A stretch of DNA of 64,000 nucleotides from positions 359,159 to 423,158 of the forward strand of contig CAWBPM010000002.1 of NCBI GenBank assembly GCA_963790825.1, given 5' to 3'. The first letter of the stretch is position 1. Each line of letters starts with the position of its first letter. Origin of the DNA: Candidatus Levyibacteriota bacterium (GTDB lineage Bacteria; Patescibacteriota; Microgenomatia; Levybacterales; UBA12049). Position numbers and translations under genes: made by a program. The notes under the pieces are model-generated. The model did no database searches and had not been told where the DNA came from. It was given only the letters and a program-made list of their open reading frames with translations. Positions 10,685 through 64,000 of the stretch are shown here, piece after piece.

Positions 10685-10885
10685 TTATTTTTCTATCTTA
10701 TTTACAACACGATGATCATTAATGAATTTATATAATGCCGGTTTTTCAATGCGGTAATGCCCTCCGAATTCCAGTGCTTCAATTTTTCCTTCTTTAATAT
10801 ACTTATAGATTGTCAGGATACTTAGCTTCAGAATTGAGGCTACTTCCCGGACTGTTAGTAATAAATTTTCTTCTGTTTGTCTCAT
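10685..10885 (-). CDS. Excisionase-family HTH DNA-binding protein (HTH_17-like)
   Basis: LLTVREVASILKLSILTIYKYIKEGKIEALEFGGHYRIEKPAL matches the excisionase/MerR-type winged HTH consensus. Its stop is 6 nt from the start of the 1577-aa gene, so the two are co-transcribed. Confidence 0.7.
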   Translation of the reverse strand: MRQTEENLLLTVREVASILKLSILTIYKYIKEGKIEALEFGGHYRIEKPALYKFINDHRVVNKIEK

Positions 10886-54450: not shown

Positions 54451-57400
54451 ATGACAGAAAAATCATTGATTCATAGATTAGTAGAAGATCATTCAAGAAA
54501 TCGGGCTTTTAAAAGAATAGCAGCAGAGAAGGGAAATGCGCTGGCTATTGCAGAAATAAATAAAGATACACGTGCGTTCCATAAAAAGAGAGAAGAACGC
54601 AAAATAATTCTTCCATTAAATAACTCTCTCCCGGAAACTCCCGGTACAGAACCAATGCCTGCGTTACAAATTGTACCAACCATAACTGACAGTTCTGAAT
54701 TCATGCTAGATGTAATAAGCGATACACCTATATCATTAAAAGAGCTTTTTTTTCAGACAATATCGGAACCGGATCAATCAGGAAATACAGATCTATTATC
54801 ACCGGTAGCAGAACCAAGATTAGAAAGAGCGTTGGCATCATTCGGTTATGACAGTAATGATTTTTTGCAGCGAATAAAAATTAAACCAGAGGTACCAACT
54901 GAAACAGGACCAAGATTAGAAAGACCACTGACATCGTTCAATCCTGATGGCAAAGATTTTTTGAAGAGAGTAAAAATTGGAGCAGAACCAACAGAAACTG
55001 AAACCAAACAACCGGCAAGTACTCAAACACCAGAGTTAGTTGAGGCACCCGTAATAAAACCTATTGAAATGCCTAGAGGCCGCAGGAAAAGATTTGCCGG
55101 TCGAGTTGCCGTAGCTGCACTTACTTTAGCTGGCGTACTCGGAGCAATGCCTGGCCGTACCAGTGCAGACCAAGCATCCACGACGCCCAGAGCAATAACA
55201 TCAGATTCTTCCTTGGTTATTCCGACTCCTGATATAACTAATCCCATAACCGTCACAACTGTTTTAAGTGGTACCAGAGTAACATCTTCAATTACAGGCA
55301 CTGAGAATATTACCTCAACTAATCCTTTGACGGTAACCGACGCAGCACCTATAACCAGTACGGAAAATATCTCCCAAACTAATCCATTAACTAATACTGA
55401 TGGGATAAGCGATACAAATCCGCTGACTTTAACAGACACCAGTCCAATAAGTCCTACCGGCACTGCGATTGCAACTCCTGAACCGAGTGGTACACCAACA
55501 CCTGATGACCCATCACCAAGTACGACGAGCAGTCCTACTCCGAGCTCTACCGGCACACCGAATCCTTATATTAATCCGGATACTGTTTTTCCGCCAAGTA
55601 TTTATTCTGGCCCACGTGTAGATTACACTATTAATCAACCTGGACCACACGCAATCCTTAAGGAAAGAGTGCCCGGGGATGGATCGACAGATTACGCTTC
55701 AGACACAAAAGATGGATTAGATACAGTATCTGCTATGCTTAACCCAAAAACAAATCAACCTGATCATATGTATGTTTGCCAAGTATATACAGATTATAAT
55801 GGGAAAAATGCCATAACAACGAAATTTGTTGAAAGCAGTTTACTTACTCAGAGTCAACTTAATACCATAACATTACCGGGTAACGGAATAGATCTCGCGT
55901 ACAATGCCGATAAGCTAAACTTAATACCTACCGGTGGGATTAAAACAAACACCTATGCATTTGAAACATTGCCAGGTAATGAATGTGCGCCTAAAGCTCC
56001 GCCACCTCCTTGTAAGACTCCGACGGGAACACCAACGGCAATACCATCTGAAACAGCAACAAATACTCCGTCTGCGACTGCTTCCGAAACTTTAACAGCA
56101 ACGCCATTACCTACTGAGACACCTCAAAATACTCCGACGGGAACACCAACGGCAATACCATCTGAAACAGCAACAAATACAGTAACACCCGTACCGACAG
56201 ACACCTTGACACCGACAGCAACCGCGACTAGAACCGCAACTCCTTATTATCCGCCTCCTCCGCCATATATTCCTCCACCTCCTTATTATCCGCCTCCTCC
56301 GCCATATATTCCTCCACCGACTCTTACCTTTACACCGGTACCGACAGCTACTGCGACGTTTACATTCACGCCGACACCTTCGGCAACTGAAACGTCAACA
56401 AATACGCCAACTATAACTCCAGTTGCAACTAATTCCGAAACTCCGACAGCGACCAAAACCCCTCGCCCACGACCCAGTGCAACTCCCCATCTGGTTAAAC
56501 AAACATGTGAAACAATCGTAAACAAAGTGAAAAACATGAAAGAATTAACAAAGAAGCAAAAAACTAAACTTGAGGAACAGCTTGAAAAAAAATACCATTT
56601 AATATGTAATATAATTCCGACTCCAAGCAGAACTCCGCGACCTACGCATACTCGAACCGCAACAGCTACCCGAACTGAAACTCCAAAACCACCACATACA
56701 CCGACTCCTACTGATACACTTACGCCAACTGCAACAAAAACAGCTACCCGAACTGCAACCAGTACCAGAACTGCTACAGCAACATTTACCTTTACACCCA
56801 GACCAACAGAGACTCATACGCCGACAGCAACACCAACTGAAACTCCAAAACCACCACATACACCGACTCCTACTGATACACTTACGCCAACTGCAACAAA
56901 AACAGCTACCCGAACTGCAACCAGTACCAGAACTGCTACAGCAACATTTACCTTTACACCCAGACCAACAGAGACTCATACGCCGACAGCTACCCCAAGT
57001 GAAACACCAAAACCAACCTCTACCCGAACAGCGACTGCTACAGCCACGTTCACTGCTACCCTAACACCTACTCCTACTGATACACTTACGCCAACTGCAA
57101 CGCGAACATCAACAAGAACACCTACTTTTACTGCTACTCTCACACCGAGACCGACCCGAACTGAAACTCCGGTTCCGCCAACTCCGACGAGAACTGCGAC
57201 GATGGTTCCTCCAAAAACAGGCGCGTTTGCAGAATCAGGAATTTTGTCAGATTTACTCTGGAGTCAACCAGTCAAAAAAGATAAAAACTTTAATAAAATC
57301 TGCTACTACGACTTTTCGAAAAATAACCAGCACGTTAGATACCGAAGCGCTGAAGGATTCATAAAAGGAGTGGCAGCCACTCACATATTGACCGACCCAA

Positions 57401-57681
57401 GTGAATCTGATGAGATAGGAGCTGCTTTACGAAAAATAGGTACTAACGAAACGCCGCAGCAATTAAGGGGTAGCATTATCCAGGATAATTTTAAACCGGA
57501 TGACCCAATTGAAGCCGGCGCATTTAATGAGTTATACGACCAGGAACCAACCATTCGTGATGCAGTTGCCAAAATGGTTGCATCAACGAAATTACAAAAC
57601 AACATGGGACCCAATCAGGATGCCATTTCTTCAGGTCCTTTCATTTATACCAGCATGTGGAAACCGCTTAATGGTTATTAA
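54451..57681 (+). CDS. 1076-aa single-pass membrane protein with a Thr/Pro-rich repetitive ectodomain
   Basis: The N-terminus has two roughly 33-aa repeats (PRLERALASFGYDSNDFLQRIKIKPE / PRLERPLTSFNPDGKDFLKRVKIGAE). TM RFAGRVAVAALTLAGVLGAMPG. A TP-rich region with YYPPPPPYIPPPP x2 follows. Exact 54-aa tandem repeats and a conserved C-terminal globular region are also present. Confidence 0.6.
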   Translation: MTEKSLIHRLVEDHSRNRAFKRIAAEKGNALAIAEINKDTRAFHKKREERKIILPLNNSLPETPGTEPMPALQIVPTITDSSEFMLDVISDTPISLKELFFQTISEPDQSGNTDLLSPVAEPRLERALASFGYDSNDFLQRIKIKPEVPTETGPRLERPLTSFNPDGKDFLKRVKIGAEPTETETKQPASTQTPELVEAPVIKPIEMPRGRRKRFAGRVAVAALTLAGVLGAMPGRTSADQASTTPRAITSDSSLVIPTPDITNPITVTTVLSGTRVTSSITGTENITSTNPLTVTDAAPITSTENISQTNPLTNTDGISDTNPLTLTDTSPISPTGTAIATPEPSGTPTPDDPSPSTTSSPTPSSTGTPNPYINPDTVFPPSIYSGPRVDYTINQPGPHAILKERVPGDGSTDYASDTKDGLDTVSAMLNPKTNQPDHMYVCQVYTDYNGKNAITTKFVESSLLTQSQLNTITLPGNGIDLAYNADKLNLIPTGGIKTNTYAFETLPGNECAPKAPPPPCKTPTGTPTAIPSETATNTPSATASETLTATPLPTETPQNTPTGTPTAIPSETATNTVTPVPTDTLTPTATATRTATPYYPPPPPYIPPPPYYPPPPPYIPPPTLTFTPVPTATATFTFTPTPSATETSTNTPTITPVATNSETPTATKTPRPRPSATPHLVKQTCETIVNKVKNMKELTKKQKTKLEEQLEKKYHLICNIIPTPSRTPRPTHTRTATATRTETPKPPHTPTPTDTLTPTATKTATRTATSTRTATATFTFTPRPTETHTPTATPTETPKPPHTPTPTDTLTPTATKTATRTATSTRTATATFTFTPRPTETHTPTATPSETPKPTSTRTATATATFTATLTPTPTDTLTPTATRTSTRTPTFTATLTPRPTRTETPVPPTPTRTATMVPPKTGAFAESGILSDLLWSQPVKKDKNFNKICYYDFSKNNQHVRYRSAEGFIKGVAATHILTDPSESDEIGAALRKIGTNETPQQLRGSIIQDNFKPDDPIEAGAFNELYDQEPTIRDAVAKMVASTKLQNNMGPNQDAISSGPFIYTSMWKPLNGY
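56677..57000. repeat. Two copies of a 162-bp coding tandem repeat
   Basis: GAAACTCCAAAACCACCACATACACCGACTCC ... recurs at 56677 and 56839. It encodes ETPKPPHTPTPTDTLTPTATKTATRTATSTRTATATFTFTPRPTETHTPTATP(T/S). Confidence 0.8.
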
Positions 57682-58572: not shown

Positions 58573-60069
58573 TTGCTGAATAATAAAATTTACATGCAAA
58601 TTAAAAAACATAGTTGGATTAATTGGTATTATCTGGCTGTTTTGGCTATTTTTTTATTAACAATTTTTTTGCGTTTTTATAATTATCCCAACAGGTGGGG
58701 GCTGGCATCTGACCAGGCAAGAGATGCAATCATTATAGAAAAGTCAATCCAACTCCACTCTCTTCCGTTCATAGGTCCATTTTCAGCCTCAGGTCCATTT
58801 GTTTTCGGCTCTTCGTGGTACATTATTTTTATTTTCTTTACTGCCATTCTACCCAACTCTGTTTTGACACCCTGGATAATACAAGGCATCTTCTTTTGTC
58901 TTATAGTCCTTCTTATGATCCACATCGGAAGAAAAATCGAAGGGAAAAGTCTGGGACTTTTGGCAGGACTGTTTACCGCTCTTTCTACTTCACAAGTAAT
59001 ATTATCAACAAACTTAATCTTTTCCGCTCTTGTAAGTGTCATTAGTGTAATTTGCCTGTATTTTTTTATTAAAGCAATAAATGAAAAAAATAATTATTTT
59101 CTTAGCATTTTAGGTTACTTCATAGGCCTGGCAATTACAATCCATTTTCAGGCCATACCGCTTTTTTTACTACTCATCATCGTGTTTTGTGCGAAACGTA
59201 AGTGGTCATCTGTAATATTTGCGCTTTGGGGCTTTATTCTTCCTTTTATCCCGCTTATTGTTTTTGATATTGAAACTAACTTTCATGAAAGTAGTAGTTT
59301 AATTAAATATTTTTTCTCAGCAAATACTGCACCGATAACTGTTCGCTGGCTTACCTATGCAGGTATATTCTGGCCAAAGGTATGGGCTGATATTATCGGC
59401 GGATATACGCCAATTGGGTATCTTATTATAATTTGTACAATTCTCACAAGTACTATTTTCTTGATAAAAAAGAAAATACCACAAACAATGGTATACGTTT
59501 TATTAGGATTTTTAGGGATAGTTGTAATACTGCGTTATTTCCAGGGCACGTTATTTGAGAACTTTTTGTCATTTCTTCATCCGTTTGTTATTTTGATTAC
59601 TGCCTGGATTTGTCTGCAAATAGTTAAATATAATAAATACCTGGGGATAGGTCTCATAACGATTATTGTAGTATTATCCTTTATTGCCAGCTTCACTGCC
59701 ATTACTAATGCCCAAAATCACACTAAAGATGAGACTATTCTCTTGCAATCCTTCATCGAGAAGAAGTATCCCAATAAGAAATTTGCAATTTATGATTATC
59801 AGTACGGAAATACTGCACAGAGTTTGCCTTTGAGTTTATTTCTTTTTATAAAGCGAGAGACAGGTCCGTCTGGTATTCGGATCGGTATCACAAACCAGGG
59901 ATCGATGAGTCCTCTGTATCCACTTCTTTATCACATCGATCTACCTTATGGAATAAATGTTTATGATTTAAATGGCGCGACACCAGGGGATTTGGCACGG
60001 GACAAATGGATACTCGTTAATCCGCGAGCAGTCTTTAATTCTATGCAGGATTGGTATAAGGAGGAGTAG
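58573..60069 (+). CDS. GT-C fold membrane glycosyltransferase (ArnT/PMT-like)
   Basis: About 12 TM helices. N-terminal RFYNYPNRWGLASDQARDAIIIEKS, with an Asp-containing first-loop motif typical of polyprenyl-phosphate-sugar-dependent GT-C enzymes. Confidence 0.5.
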   Translation: MLNNKIYMQIKKHSWINWYYLAVLAIFLLTIFLRFYNYPNRWGLASDQARDAIIIEKSIQLHSLPFIGPFSASGPFVFGSSWYIIFIFFTAILPNSVLTPWIIQGIFFCLIVLLMIHIGRKIEGKSLGLLAGLFTALSTSQVILSTNLIFSALVSVISVICLYFFIKAINEKNNYFLSILGYFIGLAITIHFQAIPLFLLLIIVFCAKRKWSSVIFALWGFILPFIPLIVFDIETNFHESSSLIKYFFSANTAPITVRWLTYAGIFWPKVWADIIGGYTPIGYLIIICTILTSTIFLIKKKIPQTMVYVLLGFLGIVVILRYFQGTLFENFLSFLHPFVILITAWICLQIVKYNKYLGIGLITIIVVLSFIASFTAITNAQNHTKDETILLQSFIEKKYPNKKFAIYDYQYGNTAQSLPLSLFLFIKRETGPSGIRIGITNQGSMSPLYPLLYHIDLPYGINVYDLNGATPGDLARDKWILVNPRAVFNSMQDWYKEE

Positions 60070-60099
60070 GAAAGAGAACTCTCAGAAACTGATCAAAGT

Positions 60100-60171
60100 G
60101 GACGATAAGGGACTCGAACCCCTGACATTCGCAGTGTAAATGCGACGCTCTACCAGCTGAGCTAATCGTCC
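60100..60171 (-). tRNA. tRNA-Val (anticodon UAC)
   Basis: Acceptor stem GGACGAT/ATCGTCC. D-arm GCTCAGCTGGTAGAGC. Anticodon stem TCGCA/TGCGA with loop TTTACAC. T-arm AGGGG-TTCGAGT-CCCTT. Length 72 nt. Confidence 0.85.
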
Positions 60172-60280
60172 GTCTCCAAATTATAATCGATTTCCCTCTT
60201 TCGATCAAGGATTAGAGCCTTGATTGGACCAAGACGTAGAGCGGTCAGCAAACTTACTTAACCAGTCTTATGGAATATTT

Positions 60281-60487
60281 TTATGTCTTACTTTTCCAAG
60301 CCCGGGCTGCCACTTTCGCATCTGATTCTGATAGCACTTGTATAATAATTCCCATTTGTACCAATACGTATTCTCCCACAGATATTTTTTCGCCGCCGAT
60401 GAGTGCGAACCGCCGTTCACCCGGATATTGAACCACCGCTTTTTTACCTTCAATTTTTATTACTTTTCCCGGTGCCGCAATACACAT
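60281..60487 (-). CDS. hypC: [NiFe]-hydrogenase maturation chaperone HypC/HupF
   Basis: N-terminal MCIAAPGKVIKI is the MC(L/I)(A/G)xP signature. 68 aa. Confidence 0.8.
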   Translation of the reverse strand: MCIAAPGKVIKIEGKKAVVQYPGERRFALIGGEKISVGEYVLVQMGIIIQVLSESDAKVAARAWKSKT

Positions 60488-60711
60488 AGTAAAATAAGTA
60501 TAGAGAATACAACCCGTTAAAGAAAGAGGCTGTATTTTATTTTCTATGCTGATCTGGTATACACCCCTGCAAACAAAATATAATAAGTATAATGCCTAGC
60601 GTAGCTTTGATTCAATAAAACTCTTTACAACAATTAAATCTCCATTTTGTTTTCTCCAGAAGGTATTACTAAAGTTTGCAAAATCAAAGCGAAGTGGTAT
60701 AAGATAGTTTT

Positions 60712-61218
60712 ATGGATCAAGCTGCTTTTCCGCAACAAAAAAAATTGCGTGTCGGTTGGTTTTCATTTACCTGTTGTGAAGACAGTACCATTTTATTTAC
60801 TGAACTTTTAAATGATCATTTTGACGAATGGAAAAAGTTAGTCGATTTTAAATATATTCATCAATTGAAATCAACCAATGATCCGACCAATCTGGACGTA
60901 GCGTTTATAGAAGGCGCGCTTTCTTCAGTAATGCAGGAACAGAAAGTTCTGAAAATTCGTGAACAGGCCAAATATGTGGTTGCAGTTGGCGCTTGTGCAT
61001 GTACCGGACTTCCGTCCGCTACCAGAAATTCTTTCGTTCCGGAACAAATTACGCAGAGAATTGAAGAATATATGAAAACATTTAATTATAATCAGAAAGT
61101 AAAAAAACTTGATGAGGTAATTCGTGTTGATGATATGGTTTACGGGTGTCCGATGAATGTGCAAACTTTTCAAGCAGTTTTGGAAAAATATTTAAAACTT
61201 TTTCAGATAATTCCGTAA
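60712..61218 (+). CDS. [NiFe]-hydrogenase small subunit, NuoB-like
   Basis: FTCCEDS (CCxxE), VGACACTG (GxCxxxG) and VYGCPMN (GCP) give the four Cys ligands of the proximal [4Fe-4S] cluster, as in NuoB and group-4-type small subunits. 168 aa. Confidence 0.7.
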   Translation: MDQAAFPQQKKLRVGWFSFTCCEDSTILFTELLNDHFDEWKKLVDFKYIHQLKSTNDPTNLDVAFIEGALSSVMQEQKVLKIREQAKYVVAVGACACTGLPSATRNSFVPEQITQRIEEYMKTFNYNQKVKKLDEVIRVDDMVYGCPMNVQTFQAVLEKYLKLFQIIP

Positions 61219-61231
61219 TAAAAATAACCAT

Positions 61232-62536
61232 ATGCATTCCGGGGAAATTACAATCGAAAACATTAGCAAAATTGAAGGTTCTGCGGGACTCAAAGTAGTG
61301 ATTGAAGAAGGTACGGTCAAAGACTGTAAATTTATTATCCAGGACTACCGGAGATTTTATACTGACGCCGTAAAAGGAAAACCGCTGGTCGCAGTTCCTT
61401 CTTTCTTGTCCCGCATTTGCGGAACCTGTTCGGTTGCACATTTATTTGCCTGTATTAAGGCAATTGAGCGGTCTCAGGGAATTGAGGTTTCTGGGCAGTC
61501 AAAACTACTTCGTCGGCTGGCTTATGACGGACTGATGATTCGTGATCATGCTTTGCATTTATACTTTTTTGTATTGCCGGATATTCTCGGTGTTGATTCG
61601 ATATTGGATATACCGGATGATGATAACAACATGGGTCATCAGCTTCTCCACGACTCGTTTGACATCAAACGAATCGGTACGGATATTACCAATGTTATTA
61701 TCGGCACTGCAATTCATGCTCCGATTCCGACAGTTGGCGGATTTTTAAGAAACCCTGATCCGACGAAATTTCCCGATCTTGTTACCCGTCTTGAAACAGT
61801 ACGTTTACAAGTAATACGTGGAATTAAAACTTTTTTTGATTGGAAAGAAACTCTCGTCAGAAATTCTGATTACATGTATTTGCGAAGTGACAAACAATAT
61901 GATTTTTTAGATGGTGATATTTGTACCTCGTCCGGAAAACGAGCAACTAACACGGAGTTTCTCAGTTTCCTGGAAAAAGTAATTATTCCTTATTCACAGT
62001 CTGAGGGATATACGATGTCCGATACACACAAAGATTATCTGGTCGGCGCTTTAGCCCGAATAAATTTTAATCAGGATCTGCTTCATCCCCGCACAAAACA
62101 AGACGCCGCAGCATTTCTTACTGCTTTTCCCTCGCATAATATTCATCACAATAATCTGGCGCAAGCTATCGAGGTGCTCCAATGCGTAGATGATGCCATA
62201 GATATTCTCAAAACAATTAAAATTAATCCGGAAGAAAAACCGGTGAAATATTCGCCAGTTGCCGGAATTGGCGTCGGCGTAGTCGAAGCACCGCGGGGAA
62301 TCTTATATCACATGGCAAAAGTAAACGCCCAAGGATTAGTAGAAGATTATGACGTAATTGTTCCGACTGCCCAAAATCAAATTACGATTGAGAACGACTT
62401 AAAAAAATACTTTAACGAAAATTTAGATAAAGATGAGGCGACGATTCATCATGAAGCTGAAAAAATTGTACGGGCTTATGATCCCTGCATGTCTTGCGCA
62501 ACTAACTTTCTCACTATTGATTGGATCCGCTCGTAA
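61232..62536 (+). CDS. [NiFe]-hydrogenase large subunit
   Basis: N-terminal RICGTCSVAH (RxCGxCxxxH). C-terminal DPCMSCATN (DPCxxC), but Asn replaces the canonical His/Arg, and only 9 residues follow the motif. 434 aa. Confidence 0.85.
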   Translation: MHSGEITIENISKIEGSAGLKVVIEEGTVKDCKFIIQDYRRFYTDAVKGKPLVAVPSFLSRICGTCSVAHLFACIKAIERSQGIEVSGQSKLLRRLAYDGLMIRDHALHLYFFVLPDILGVDSILDIPDDDNNMGHQLLHDSFDIKRIGTDITNVIIGTAIHAPIPTVGGFLRNPDPTKFPDLVTRLETVRLQVIRGIKTFFDWKETLVRNSDYMYLRSDKQYDFLDGDICTSSGKRATNTEFLSFLEKVIIPYSQSEGYTMSDTHKDYLVGALARINFNQDLLHPRTKQDAAAFLTAFPSHNIHHNNLAQAIEVLQCVDDAIDILKTIKINPEEKPVKYSPVAGIGVGVVEAPRGILYHMAKVNAQGLVEDYDVIVPTAQNQITIENDLKKYFNENLDKDEATIHHEAEKIVRAYDPCMSCATNFLTIDWIRS

Positions 62537-62877
62537 TTAACTTGCGCATTTTGAGGTACTCCAATAATTGTCACTTTTCCCAATTTATTTAATTTCTTTA
62601 AATACTTTAATTGAAAACCAAGGTCGTAGTCATGCGCGGTTACACTTTTATTTACGGACAATTTGTCAATATCCGCTTCTGTAAGCAAAGTAGCTTCGGA
62701 TAATCCCCGGACAGTGTCAAGCAGTATGACGTGCGCCTGACCGGTAAACGGCAAATCTTGGTTAGGTGGTACGAAAATAAAATTAATCTGAGGGAAAGAC
62801 TTTTACAATTTCCGCGTAACAGTAAATACCGCGTTATCTTCCGGAATATCCTGATTTCCAAAAACATAGATAGTCAT
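62476..62877 (-). pseudogene. Hydrogenase maturation endopeptidase (HycI/HybD/HoxW family), interrupted by an in-frame TAA at codon 25
   Basis: Hand translation from ATG 62877: MTIYVFGNQDIPEDNAVFTVTRKL, then TAA (62805-62803). The same frame continues: KSFPQINFIFVPPNQDLPFTGQAHVILLDTV ... SVTAHDYDLGF ... to the stop at 62476. The N-terminal GN...D, the ILLDTV Asp region and the AHD His region are all in one frame. The 3' 61 nt overlap the large-subunit gene on the opposite strand. Confidence 0.55.
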
Positions 62878-62907
62878 ATTCTGTTTATTTTATCATGGAA
62901 AGGTTGT

Positions 62908-63624
62908 ATGATGGGTTCTATGAATTCAAAAGCTTTACAATTCGCATCCAGATTTTCTCTGCCGCCAAATTCGCTGGGATATTGCGGAAAGAATACAGCT
63001 CCGGCTAGATTTAAAGAATGTATTATTGAAGAAAAATGTGAGAGTGTTGCAAAGGAACTCCGGCAGTTTATAGTTCTTAATCCTTATTTAAAAACACTGG
63101 CAAAAATCAGCAAAAAGCCGAGATTTTCTTACGAAGTTATCGAAAGCTATTGGCTGGGAAATGATTTACTGACACTCGCCAAGAGAGAGCATTATGAATT
63201 ACTTCTCGATAATTTCATTAAACAAGGTGTACCTGATTTTTTTGTTGCAGAACTTCAGAAAAAACAACCTCATCAATTTATACCGAATCATTTGTTCCAA
63301 GTGCTTCATGTTGGCGTCGGAAGAGCAAGCGGTGCCGTACCGTTTTCAATTCAAACGATCAATAACTGCATGATACGCTGGGGAAGAGTAAAAAAAATTC
63401 AAAAAGAGCATATTAATGTTGCACTTCATTCGCTGAGAGAGAAAAAGCATGGTTATATGTTAACAAAACGTGTAGAAAATGTTCCATTTGATTCTCTTCT
63501 TGTAGCAAATATACAAATAAATGACATTGTCGCAGTTCACTGGAATATGGTAATAAAAGTTCTAAATGCGAGAGAAGAAAACAATTTGCAATTTTGGACA
63601 GAACAGGTTATTGCATCCATTTAG
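62908..63624 (+). CDS. Hypothetical protein
   Basis: The likely start is the ATG at 62908 (MMGSMNSK...). The upstream part of the track ORF overlaps the protease gene. Confidence 0.3.
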   Translation: MMGSMNSKALQFASRFSLPPNSLGYCGKNTAPARFKECIIEEKCESVAKELRQFIVLNPYLKTLAKISKKPRFSYEVIESYWLGNDLLTLAKREHYELLLDNFIKQGVPDFFVAELQKKQPHQFIPNHLFQVLHVGVGRASGAVPFSIQTINNCMIRWGRVKKIQKEHINVALHSLREKKHGYMLTKRVENVPFDSLLVANIQINDIVAVHWNMVIKVLNAREENNLQFWTEQVIASI

Positions 63625-63665
63625 TAAGAATTATTTAATTTTTCAGTATTGACTATAAGTATACT

Positions 63666-64000
63666 TCACCCAGATCTGTCATTCTGAGGCTTTGCCGAAG
63701 AATCCCATATATTTTTATCTCCTTTCCTGGTTGTTAACCAGAAAATGCTAAGTCCAAAAACCAGCCAAACAGTTTGAGGTGATAAAATCAATGTCCAGGT
63801 GTGTGTGATAAAGATTACTGAAAGAATATTAGTAATAAGTGTTGCGACTGTTAATACTGACGTAACCACAATTGCAGGGGCATATTTGAGCGCCCGATAC
63901 CAACTCATAACGTACCCAAGCAGTAAAAACATAGTGAGGAGAAACCAGAACCACTGCGTTGGGGTTAAAATCATGCTTTTTGCTAAAGCGTGTGGAGCTA
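63666..64000 (-). CDS. Membrane protein, possibly EamA/DMT-like, C-terminal part only; gene probably continues beyond the window
   Basis: Hydrophobic helices. The ORF is open to the window edge. Confidence 0.25.
   Translation of the reverse strand, partial: APHALAKSMILTPTQWFWFLLTMFLLLGYVMSWYRALKYAPAIVVTSVLTVATLITNILSVIFITHTWTLILSPQTVWLVFGLSIFWLTTRKGDKNIWDSSAKPQNDRSG

Follow-up and report, generated by a model that had tools for sequence, protein, structure and literature searches.

An interrupted maturation protease gene overlaps, in antisense, the end of the hydrogenase large-subunit gene in a Patescibacterial hyd2 cluster

The minus-strand frame that runs into the 3' end of a [NiFe]-hydrogenase large-subunit gene in the window (the whole stretch of 64,000 nt from Candidatus Levyibacteriota bacterium that was analysed) is the maturation endopeptidase gene that normally belongs to the hyd2 (group 3b-like) cluster of Patescibacteria, and the stop that interrupts it is private to the window sequence, the rest of the protease gene and its partner genes being untouched. 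We regard this stop, at a probability of roughly 55 %, as a very recent loss-of-function allele that is fixed, or at least predominant, among the cells sequenced. The Asn found at the cleavage site of the large subunit and the 61-nt overlap between the two genes occur in nearly all related loci and are therefore traits of the hyd2 clade and not signs of decay. The features concerned are the following.

60281-60487, minus strand: HypC/HupF chaperone gene (Pfam E 7e-14), found in the same place in 57 of 78 related loci
60712-61218, plus strand: truncated hydrogenase small subunit, 168 aa (Pfam Oxidored_q6)
61232-62536, plus strand: [NiFe]-hydrogenase large subunit, 434 aa, group 3b-like (CPR 'hyd2' clade), assigned by Pfam NiFeSe_Hases and by structural relatives
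62476-62536, both strands: dual-coding antisense overlap of 61 nt, in which the C-terminal helix of the protease, ERIQSIVRKLVAQDMQGS and its stop, lies opposite the tail of the large subunit, AYDPCMSCATNFLTIDWIRS and its stop
62476-62754, minus strand: remnant ORF of 92 aa (P0002) with a TTG start at codon 42, as called by the public annotation of the source genome
62476-62877, minus strand: HycI/HybD-family [NiFe]-hydrogenase maturation endopeptidase frame of 133 codons with one interruption, assigned by translation, 360 homologues, an AF2 model with Foldseek, and family invariants
62504-62506, plus strand: codon AAC of Asn425, at the position of the His/Arg cleavage-site residue of canonical enzymes
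62803-62805, minus strand: TAA at codon 25; the counterpart in L001, a contig of near-identical sequence, is CAA (Gln), so that one C>T on the coding strand separates the two (plus strand A instead of G at 62805)
62911-63624, plus strand: DUF6390 gene (Pfam PF19927, E 4e-31), present in 69 of 78 related loci

The original prediction of a HycI/HybD-like frame at 62476-62877, broken only by the TAA at 62805-62803 and overlapping by 61 nt the DPCxxC-encoding end of the large-subunit gene, was confirmed on all three counts. Translation from 62877 down to 62476 on the minus strand gave MTIYVFGNQDIPEDNAVFTVTRKL, the TAA of codon 25 as the sole internal stop, and then KSFPQINFIFVPPNQDLPFTGQAHVILLDTVRGLSEATLLTEADIDKLSVNKSVTAHDYDLGFQLKYLKKLNKLGKVTIIGVPQNAQVNYERIQSIVRKLVAQDMQGS up to the terminator. 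A search of 5.8 billion proteins returned 360 homologues with E<=0.01, nearly all of 129-135 aa, many of which are labelled Ni,Fe-hydrogenase maturation factor by JGI or carry a precomputed PF01750 match; judged by these homologues of near-constant length, the frame is evidently well beyond chance expectation. Positions F6, G7, N8, D14, D54, H82 and D83, among others, were invariant in an alignment of 48 homologues. The scores of the window protease against the family models fell below threshold, both for Pfam HycI (PF01750; 18.5 bits, E 0.0018, cut-off 23) and for TIGR00072 (18.8 bits, curated cut-off 47.45). Since the PDB sequences searched with the protease family profile yielded no match even at E<=1, the identity of the protease was approached by fold comparison. 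An AlphaFold (AF2) model of the intact variant, built on the family alignment, reached a pLDDT of 84 and a pTM of 0.80, and the top four Foldseek matches in the PDB were E. coli HybD (1cfz; E 6e-5, TM 0.63) and HycI (2kml/2e85). D14, D54 and H82 align to Glu16, Asp62 and His93 of HybD in a collinear but weak hhalign alignment (E 0.3). The nickel-binding cleft proposed in the literature consists of two conserved acidic residues and one histidine (PMC12134894), and by this alignment D14, D54 and H82 would correspond to these residues of the endopeptidases. The frame therefore belongs, as a genuine if divergent member, to the fold family of the hydrogenase maturation endopeptidases, and protease activity is predicted for it.

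The comparison with the characterized enzymes (E. coli HybD and HycI, T. kodakarensis HybD; PF01750, TIGR00072) shows both the common ground and the distance. The alpha-beta-alpha fold is shared, the three acidic/His metal-ligand positions are conserved, and the gene adjoins that of a large subunit bearing a C-terminal extension. In contrast to HybD and HycI, which have about 160 aa, the window protease has 133 aa and is so divergent that it stays under the Pfam and TIGR cut-offs. Its best match among GTDB species representatives has 59 % identity. Moreover, its C-terminal helix is encoded antisense to the gene of its own substrate, the presumed P1 residue of that substrate is Asn instead of His or Arg, and the gene is interrupted in the window.

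The cluster is arranged in the order EamA-like, DUF6390, protease, large subunit, small subunit and HypC. DUF6390, a conserved member of the cluster, and the protease gene are divergent, with about 35 nt between their starts. The related loci span Levy-, Davies-, Ames-, Woese-, Collier-, Shapiro- and Uhrbacteria as well as WWE3, which places the window in the Patescibacteria and probably among the Microgenomates. The window resembles the 'hyd2' clade described from CPR genomes in its 3b-like large subunit, in its truncated small subunit (168 aa, compared with a mean of 164 aa for CPR hyd2 small subunits), in the nearby hypC and in having no adjacent genes for the beta and gamma subunits (Jaffe et al., 2020; PMC7304191). 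No beta/gamma (diaphorase) genes adjoin the cluster, and L001 carries FAD/NAD-binding and ferredoxin genes 2-6 kb past the end of the window. To the description of hyd2 the present analysis adds the protease gene on the opposite strand, the 61-nt overlap, the Asn in place of His and the DUF6390 neighbour. A promoter and terminator scan of 60000-64000 gave counts not above those of shuffled sequences, and no terminator was found by it between the convergent large-subunit and protease genes.

Among solved structures, the large subunit comes closest to the group 3b enzymes T. kodakarensis HyhL (5yxy; E 5e-51 in a full-length alignment) and P. furiosus SH1 (sulfhydrogenase I), the latter by its alpha subunit; matches to the NCBIfam ShyA and HydA models were far under cut-off. 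Both Cys-ligand motifs, RICGTCSVAH and DPCMSC, are intact. HyhL and SH1 alpha likewise have four Cys ligands and a short C-terminal peptide, but they end in DPCISCSVH followed by four residues, whereas the window large subunit ends in DPCMSCATN followed by an extension of nine residues. DPCxxCxx is closed by His in 122, by Arg in four and by Asn in four of the 150 best large-subunit cluster representatives, and all four Asn representatives lie within the tight hyd2 clade at 61 % identity or more. Of the 64 scorable related loci, 63 have DPC[MI]SC[AS]TN plus a tail resembling FLKIDWIRK, in each case together with an uninterrupted protease gene; the tail in L001 is identical to that of the window and is accompanied by a protease with Gln25. 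Since Asn occurs in relatives with an intact protease, it is an old character of the clade that coexists with selection for the protease, which is itself strongly conserved.

The best database match of the protease, P0001, has 133 aa and differs from the window frame only by the Gln at position 25. It is encoded on L001, a Logan contig of 9.7 kb from run ERR11594402, which represents a different sample. L001 aligns to 60142-64000 of the window without gaps at 99.74 % identity over 3859 nt. One of the ten differences is the stop; the large-subunit gene holds the remaining nine, of which eight are synonymous and one exchanges Ile405 and Leu. The two sequences agree fully in hypC, in the small-subunit and DUF6390 genes and in every spacer. 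Because eight of the nine large-subunit differences are synonymous, the comparison shows a large subunit that has evolved under purifying selection relative to the L001 strain and is not decaying. In eight of the ten differences, the stop included, L001 has G or C and the window A or T. Protease frames were free of internal stops in 80 of 80 related genome loci fetched with the family alignment, of which L080 is partly masked and three end at contig ends. The residue aligned to position 25 was Lys in 23, Gln in 11, Ser in 11 and Glu in seven of the 78 frames scored from 81 related loci, with Gly and others in the remainder and a stop in none. Exact look-ups of the 92-aa ORF and of the window large subunit on other contigs gave no recorded gene position, and the cluster tables contain just the source contig (751,017 bp) and the one Logan contig. 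Two DNA-pattern scans of JGI metagenomes, one for a 24-mer matched exactly save for an N at the variable base, the other for a codon-degenerate 47-mer, brought no third observation of codon 25. Of the modelled fold, strand 1, Asp14, helix 1 and strand 2 are missing from the remnant P0002, which, as predicted from this model, cannot act as a protease.

A recent null allele would have arisen in this assembly alone through one C>T transition that turned the Gln codon CAA into TAA. The product would then be either a peptide of 24 residues or the 92-residue remnant without strand 1, Asp14 and helix 1, so that no protease would be formed; the large subunit would retain its nine-residue tail and the hydrogenase would stay immature and inactive. 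An inactive, tailed large subunit is expected if the allele is real, because hydrogenases that are left unprocessed stay completely inactive (PMC5299533). The alternative that the organism has CAA, and that the coding-strand T at 62805 is an artefact of assembly or polishing, is a serious possibility, though one to which we give less than even odds. A single base separates the interrupted gene from a counterpart that is unbroken and, for the rest, almost the same; all 80 relatives have an intact copy, and the hydrogenase genes bear no trace of relaxed selection. The several lesions and the relaxed selection on partner genes that are expected of a decaying pseudogene or operon were not seen; there is one lesion only, and a lone substitution without secondary damage is exactly what a consensus error looks like. 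Moreover, the T was seen in one assembly, and L001 is the only other observation of the species. Against an error, the other nine differences from L001 are evidently biological, with a ratio of synonymous to non-synonymous changes of 8:1, whereas about three in four would be expected to be non-synonymous if they were random errors. The C>T change has the same direction as most of these differences, stop-creating substitutions make up a small share of all errors, and the assembly gives a clean impression: a search of the 64-kb window brought up no further in-frame stop or split gene, and overlapping neighbour ORFs had complete domains. Two split-gene candidates, at 10687 and 36204, were rejected because the upstream piece proved to be a gene of its own, for an HTH protein in the first case and for an RRM protein in the second. 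The clustering of the SNPs was uninformative as a test of real change versus error, since any stop in the protease gene would lie within about 430 nt of the polymorphic tract. The patchy occurrence of these hydrogenases across CPR lineages (PMC7304191) fits recurrent loss and thus a null allele. A second protease gene, which would weaken the consequences of such an allele, might be encoded elsewhere in the 751-kb genome, of which the window covers 64 kb.

Fresh pseudogene and sequencing error, two of the three readings first offered for the stop, thus both survive, and the third, programmed readthrough, suppression or recoding of the TAA to give a full-length protease, found no support. Its sole point is the absence of any second flaw in the frame. 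Codon 25 is not a stop in any of the relatives, TAA is the main terminator in the window (34 of 53 long frames, including those of the large subunit and of the protease itself), and none of the four tRNAs within the window (Gln-TTG, Gly, Phe and Val) has a UUA anticodon or is a suppressor; no conserved structure or context was detected at the locus either. We consider recoding scarcely credible. The original prediction had further coupled the stop to the cleavage site, in that the large subunit would have lost its His, processing would no longer be needed and the protease gene would have been discarded. The window large subunit does carry Asn where canonical enzymes have His or Arg, and the literature places the cleavage after DPCxxCxxH/R (PMC2670836). 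The coupling is nevertheless highly improbable and did not hold up in the relatives, where the Asn large subunit goes together with an uninterrupted protease whose metal-ligand residues are invariant, in L001 with CAA at codon 25 as well as in the 63 loci mentioned above, and where the nine-residue extension has been kept and conserved.

The overlap itself was found to be a stable trait. It measures exactly 61 nt in 57 of 64 related loci and 55 nt in one, and contiguity is lost in six. The AF2 model has a confident C-terminal helix, residues 115-132 of the protease, on this stretch, and in relatives without the overlap the protease tail is similar in length and unrelated in sequence. The two genes overlap in the phase that makes their third codon positions fall together. 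Measured over 67 loci, the entropy within the overlap amounted to 0.27 bits away from the wobble positions and 1.19 bits at those that both genes share, as against 1.01 and 1.66 bits, respectively, in the flank coding for the protease only and 0.50 and 1.50 bits in the flank coding for the large subunit only. Four large-subunit codons with four-fold degeneracy were compared, as listed here with the bases counted at their wobble position and the protease residue encoded opposite.

Pro (CCN): C 44, T 21, G 4, A 4; protease residue Gln 65, His 8
Ser (TCN): T 25, C 44, A 4; protease residue Gln 69, His 4
Thr (ACN): T 32, C 38, A 3; protease residue Leu 70, Phe 3
Ala (GCN), control: A 18, C 25, G 14, T 16; protease residue always Val

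Purines are avoided at the wobble position of the three codons in which the base alters the protease residue, and base usage is even at the adjacent Ala codon, whose wobble position is silent in both frames. This biased use, set against the even Ala control, shows that the protease frame is also under selection within the overlap. With convergent (tail-to-tail) protein-coding overlaps of prokaryotes the one in the window shares its antisense arrangement, in the phase with coinciding wobble positions of both genes. It differs in that the partners here are an enzyme and the protease predicted to process it, and the shared DNA encodes two metal-ligand cysteines together with the cleavage site. 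A literature search for an overlap between hydrogenase large-subunit and protease genes found no description. The clade-wide Asn site combined with the enzyme/protease overlap would be a modest variation on a maturation system that is already known, and the literature searched does not describe it.

The two traits are linked at the level of a single codon. Leu125 of the protease (TTA, 62505-62503) is read from the antisense of the wobble base of Thr424 and the first two bases of Asn425. With Asn (AAY) in the large subunit, protease codon 125 is TTA or TTG (Leu, 66 loci) or TTT (Phe, four loci), whereas with His (CAY) it would become TGA (stop), TGG (Trp) or TGY (Cys). Large-subunit tails of the form ...ATHFLKVxW occur in the closest sister clades with His, at 39-46 % identity. 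Two His-bearing loci (L082 and L083) have the protease, DUF6390 and EamA genes nearby, with another gene placed between large subunit and protease and with a protease C-terminal tail unrelated to that of the overlapping loci; a locus from Nanoarchaeota (L081) shows this arrangement as well. No His-bearing large subunit was found among the overlapping loci, and the five loci that have Asn without the overlap resemble secondary rearrangements. From these sequences we tentatively propose, at somewhat short of even odds, that Asn replaced His at the same time as the overlap came into being and that the Asn is now kept in place by the overlap, the coupling of the two resting on effectively one evolutionary event. 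With similar reserve, the Asn of hyd2 may be a consequence of an overlap selected in both frames, in which case the protease would cleave after Asn.

The stop itself is of little weight, since it denotes either one strain that is newly without hydrogenase maturation or an error of one base, and the publicly annotated ORF of 92 aa is best read as a truncated protease gene. Of broader relevance is that a clade of uncultivated bacteria has departed from the textbook motif DPCxxCxxH/R and yet retains the protease, so that in metagenomic surveys of hydrogenases Asn in place of His should not be taken as a loss of processing. The overlap provides a concrete case in which an antisense arrangement constrains two interacting proteins and, if the proposed link between the codons is true, the cleavage-site residue of an enzyme would be dictated, through the genetic code, by the enzyme's own processing protease.

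The window and L001, a 99.7 %-identical Logan contig in which the protease gene is intact, differ at ten positions, all of which (10/10) are confined to 1.44 kb (61363-62805), a tract that covers the hydrogenase large subunit and the 5' part of the protease gene. No differences between the two sequences were found in the flanking 1.2 kb on each side of this tract. At 8 of the 10 positions L001 carries G/C and the window A/T. The pattern looks like a recombined tract or a strain mosaic.

The source genome's public annotation does not flag the protease gene as disrupted. The sole protein annotated at the locus (NCBI/ENA, 751,017-bp source contig) is P0002, a TTG-initiated remnant:

62476-62754, minus strand, 92-aa protease remnant P0002, TTG start, public annotation

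In the sister clades the large subunit retains the His at the cleavage-site position, with a tail of the form …ATHFLKVxW (L081, L082, and L083). The protease gene is also convergent there, but another gene lies between it and the large subunit, and the C-terminal tail of the protease differs. The sister-clade loci are:

L082, 3143-3559
L083, 2969-3349
L081

Some of these His-bearing relatives are labelled as DPANN archaea (Nano- and Pacearchaeota). Separately, the Patescibacteria-type cluster was found in several MAGs whose record titles read Gammaproteobacteria, Pseudomonadales, Rubrobacteraceae, Methanoperedens or Promethearchaeota (L007, L021, L023, L030, L067 and others), which suggests binning contamination or wrong taxonomy in public records.

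Elsewhere in the window lies a repeat-rich reading frame:

54451-57681, plus strand, 1076-aa ORF, very high Pro and Thr content

Its sequence includes long internal repeats that are nearly identical (…TPTATKTATRTATSTRTATATFTFTPRPTETHTPTATP…) as well as a stretch of PPPPPYIPPPPYYPPPPPY, features that make a surface protein its probable identity. Spurious long antisense ORFs also arise from the repeats.

Past the window end, redox genes could be read from L001:

L001 796-5236, redox genes past the EamA-like gene, beyond window position 64000

The products, encoded 1-6 kb past the end in the same genome region, are subunits of pyruvate:ferredoxin oxidoreductase, two FAD/NAD-binding oxidoreductases and one ferredoxin, and the two-subunit hydrogenase may have its electron partners among them.

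Divergent from the protease gene, with starts about 35 nt apart, is a further neighbour:

62911-63624, plus strand, DUF6390 gene (PF19927)

This gene occupies the same position across L001-L083, being found in 69 of the 78 related loci, and it also occurs near His-bearing sister hydrogenases (L082, L083). Its product has invariant C25, C37, C43, C153, H127, and H210. Residues 153-224 align collinearly but weakly with the entire HypC (hhalign E 0.006, probability 6 %), Cys153 falling on the essential N-terminal Cys of HypC. The DUF6390 protein may be a hyd2-specific maturation factor.
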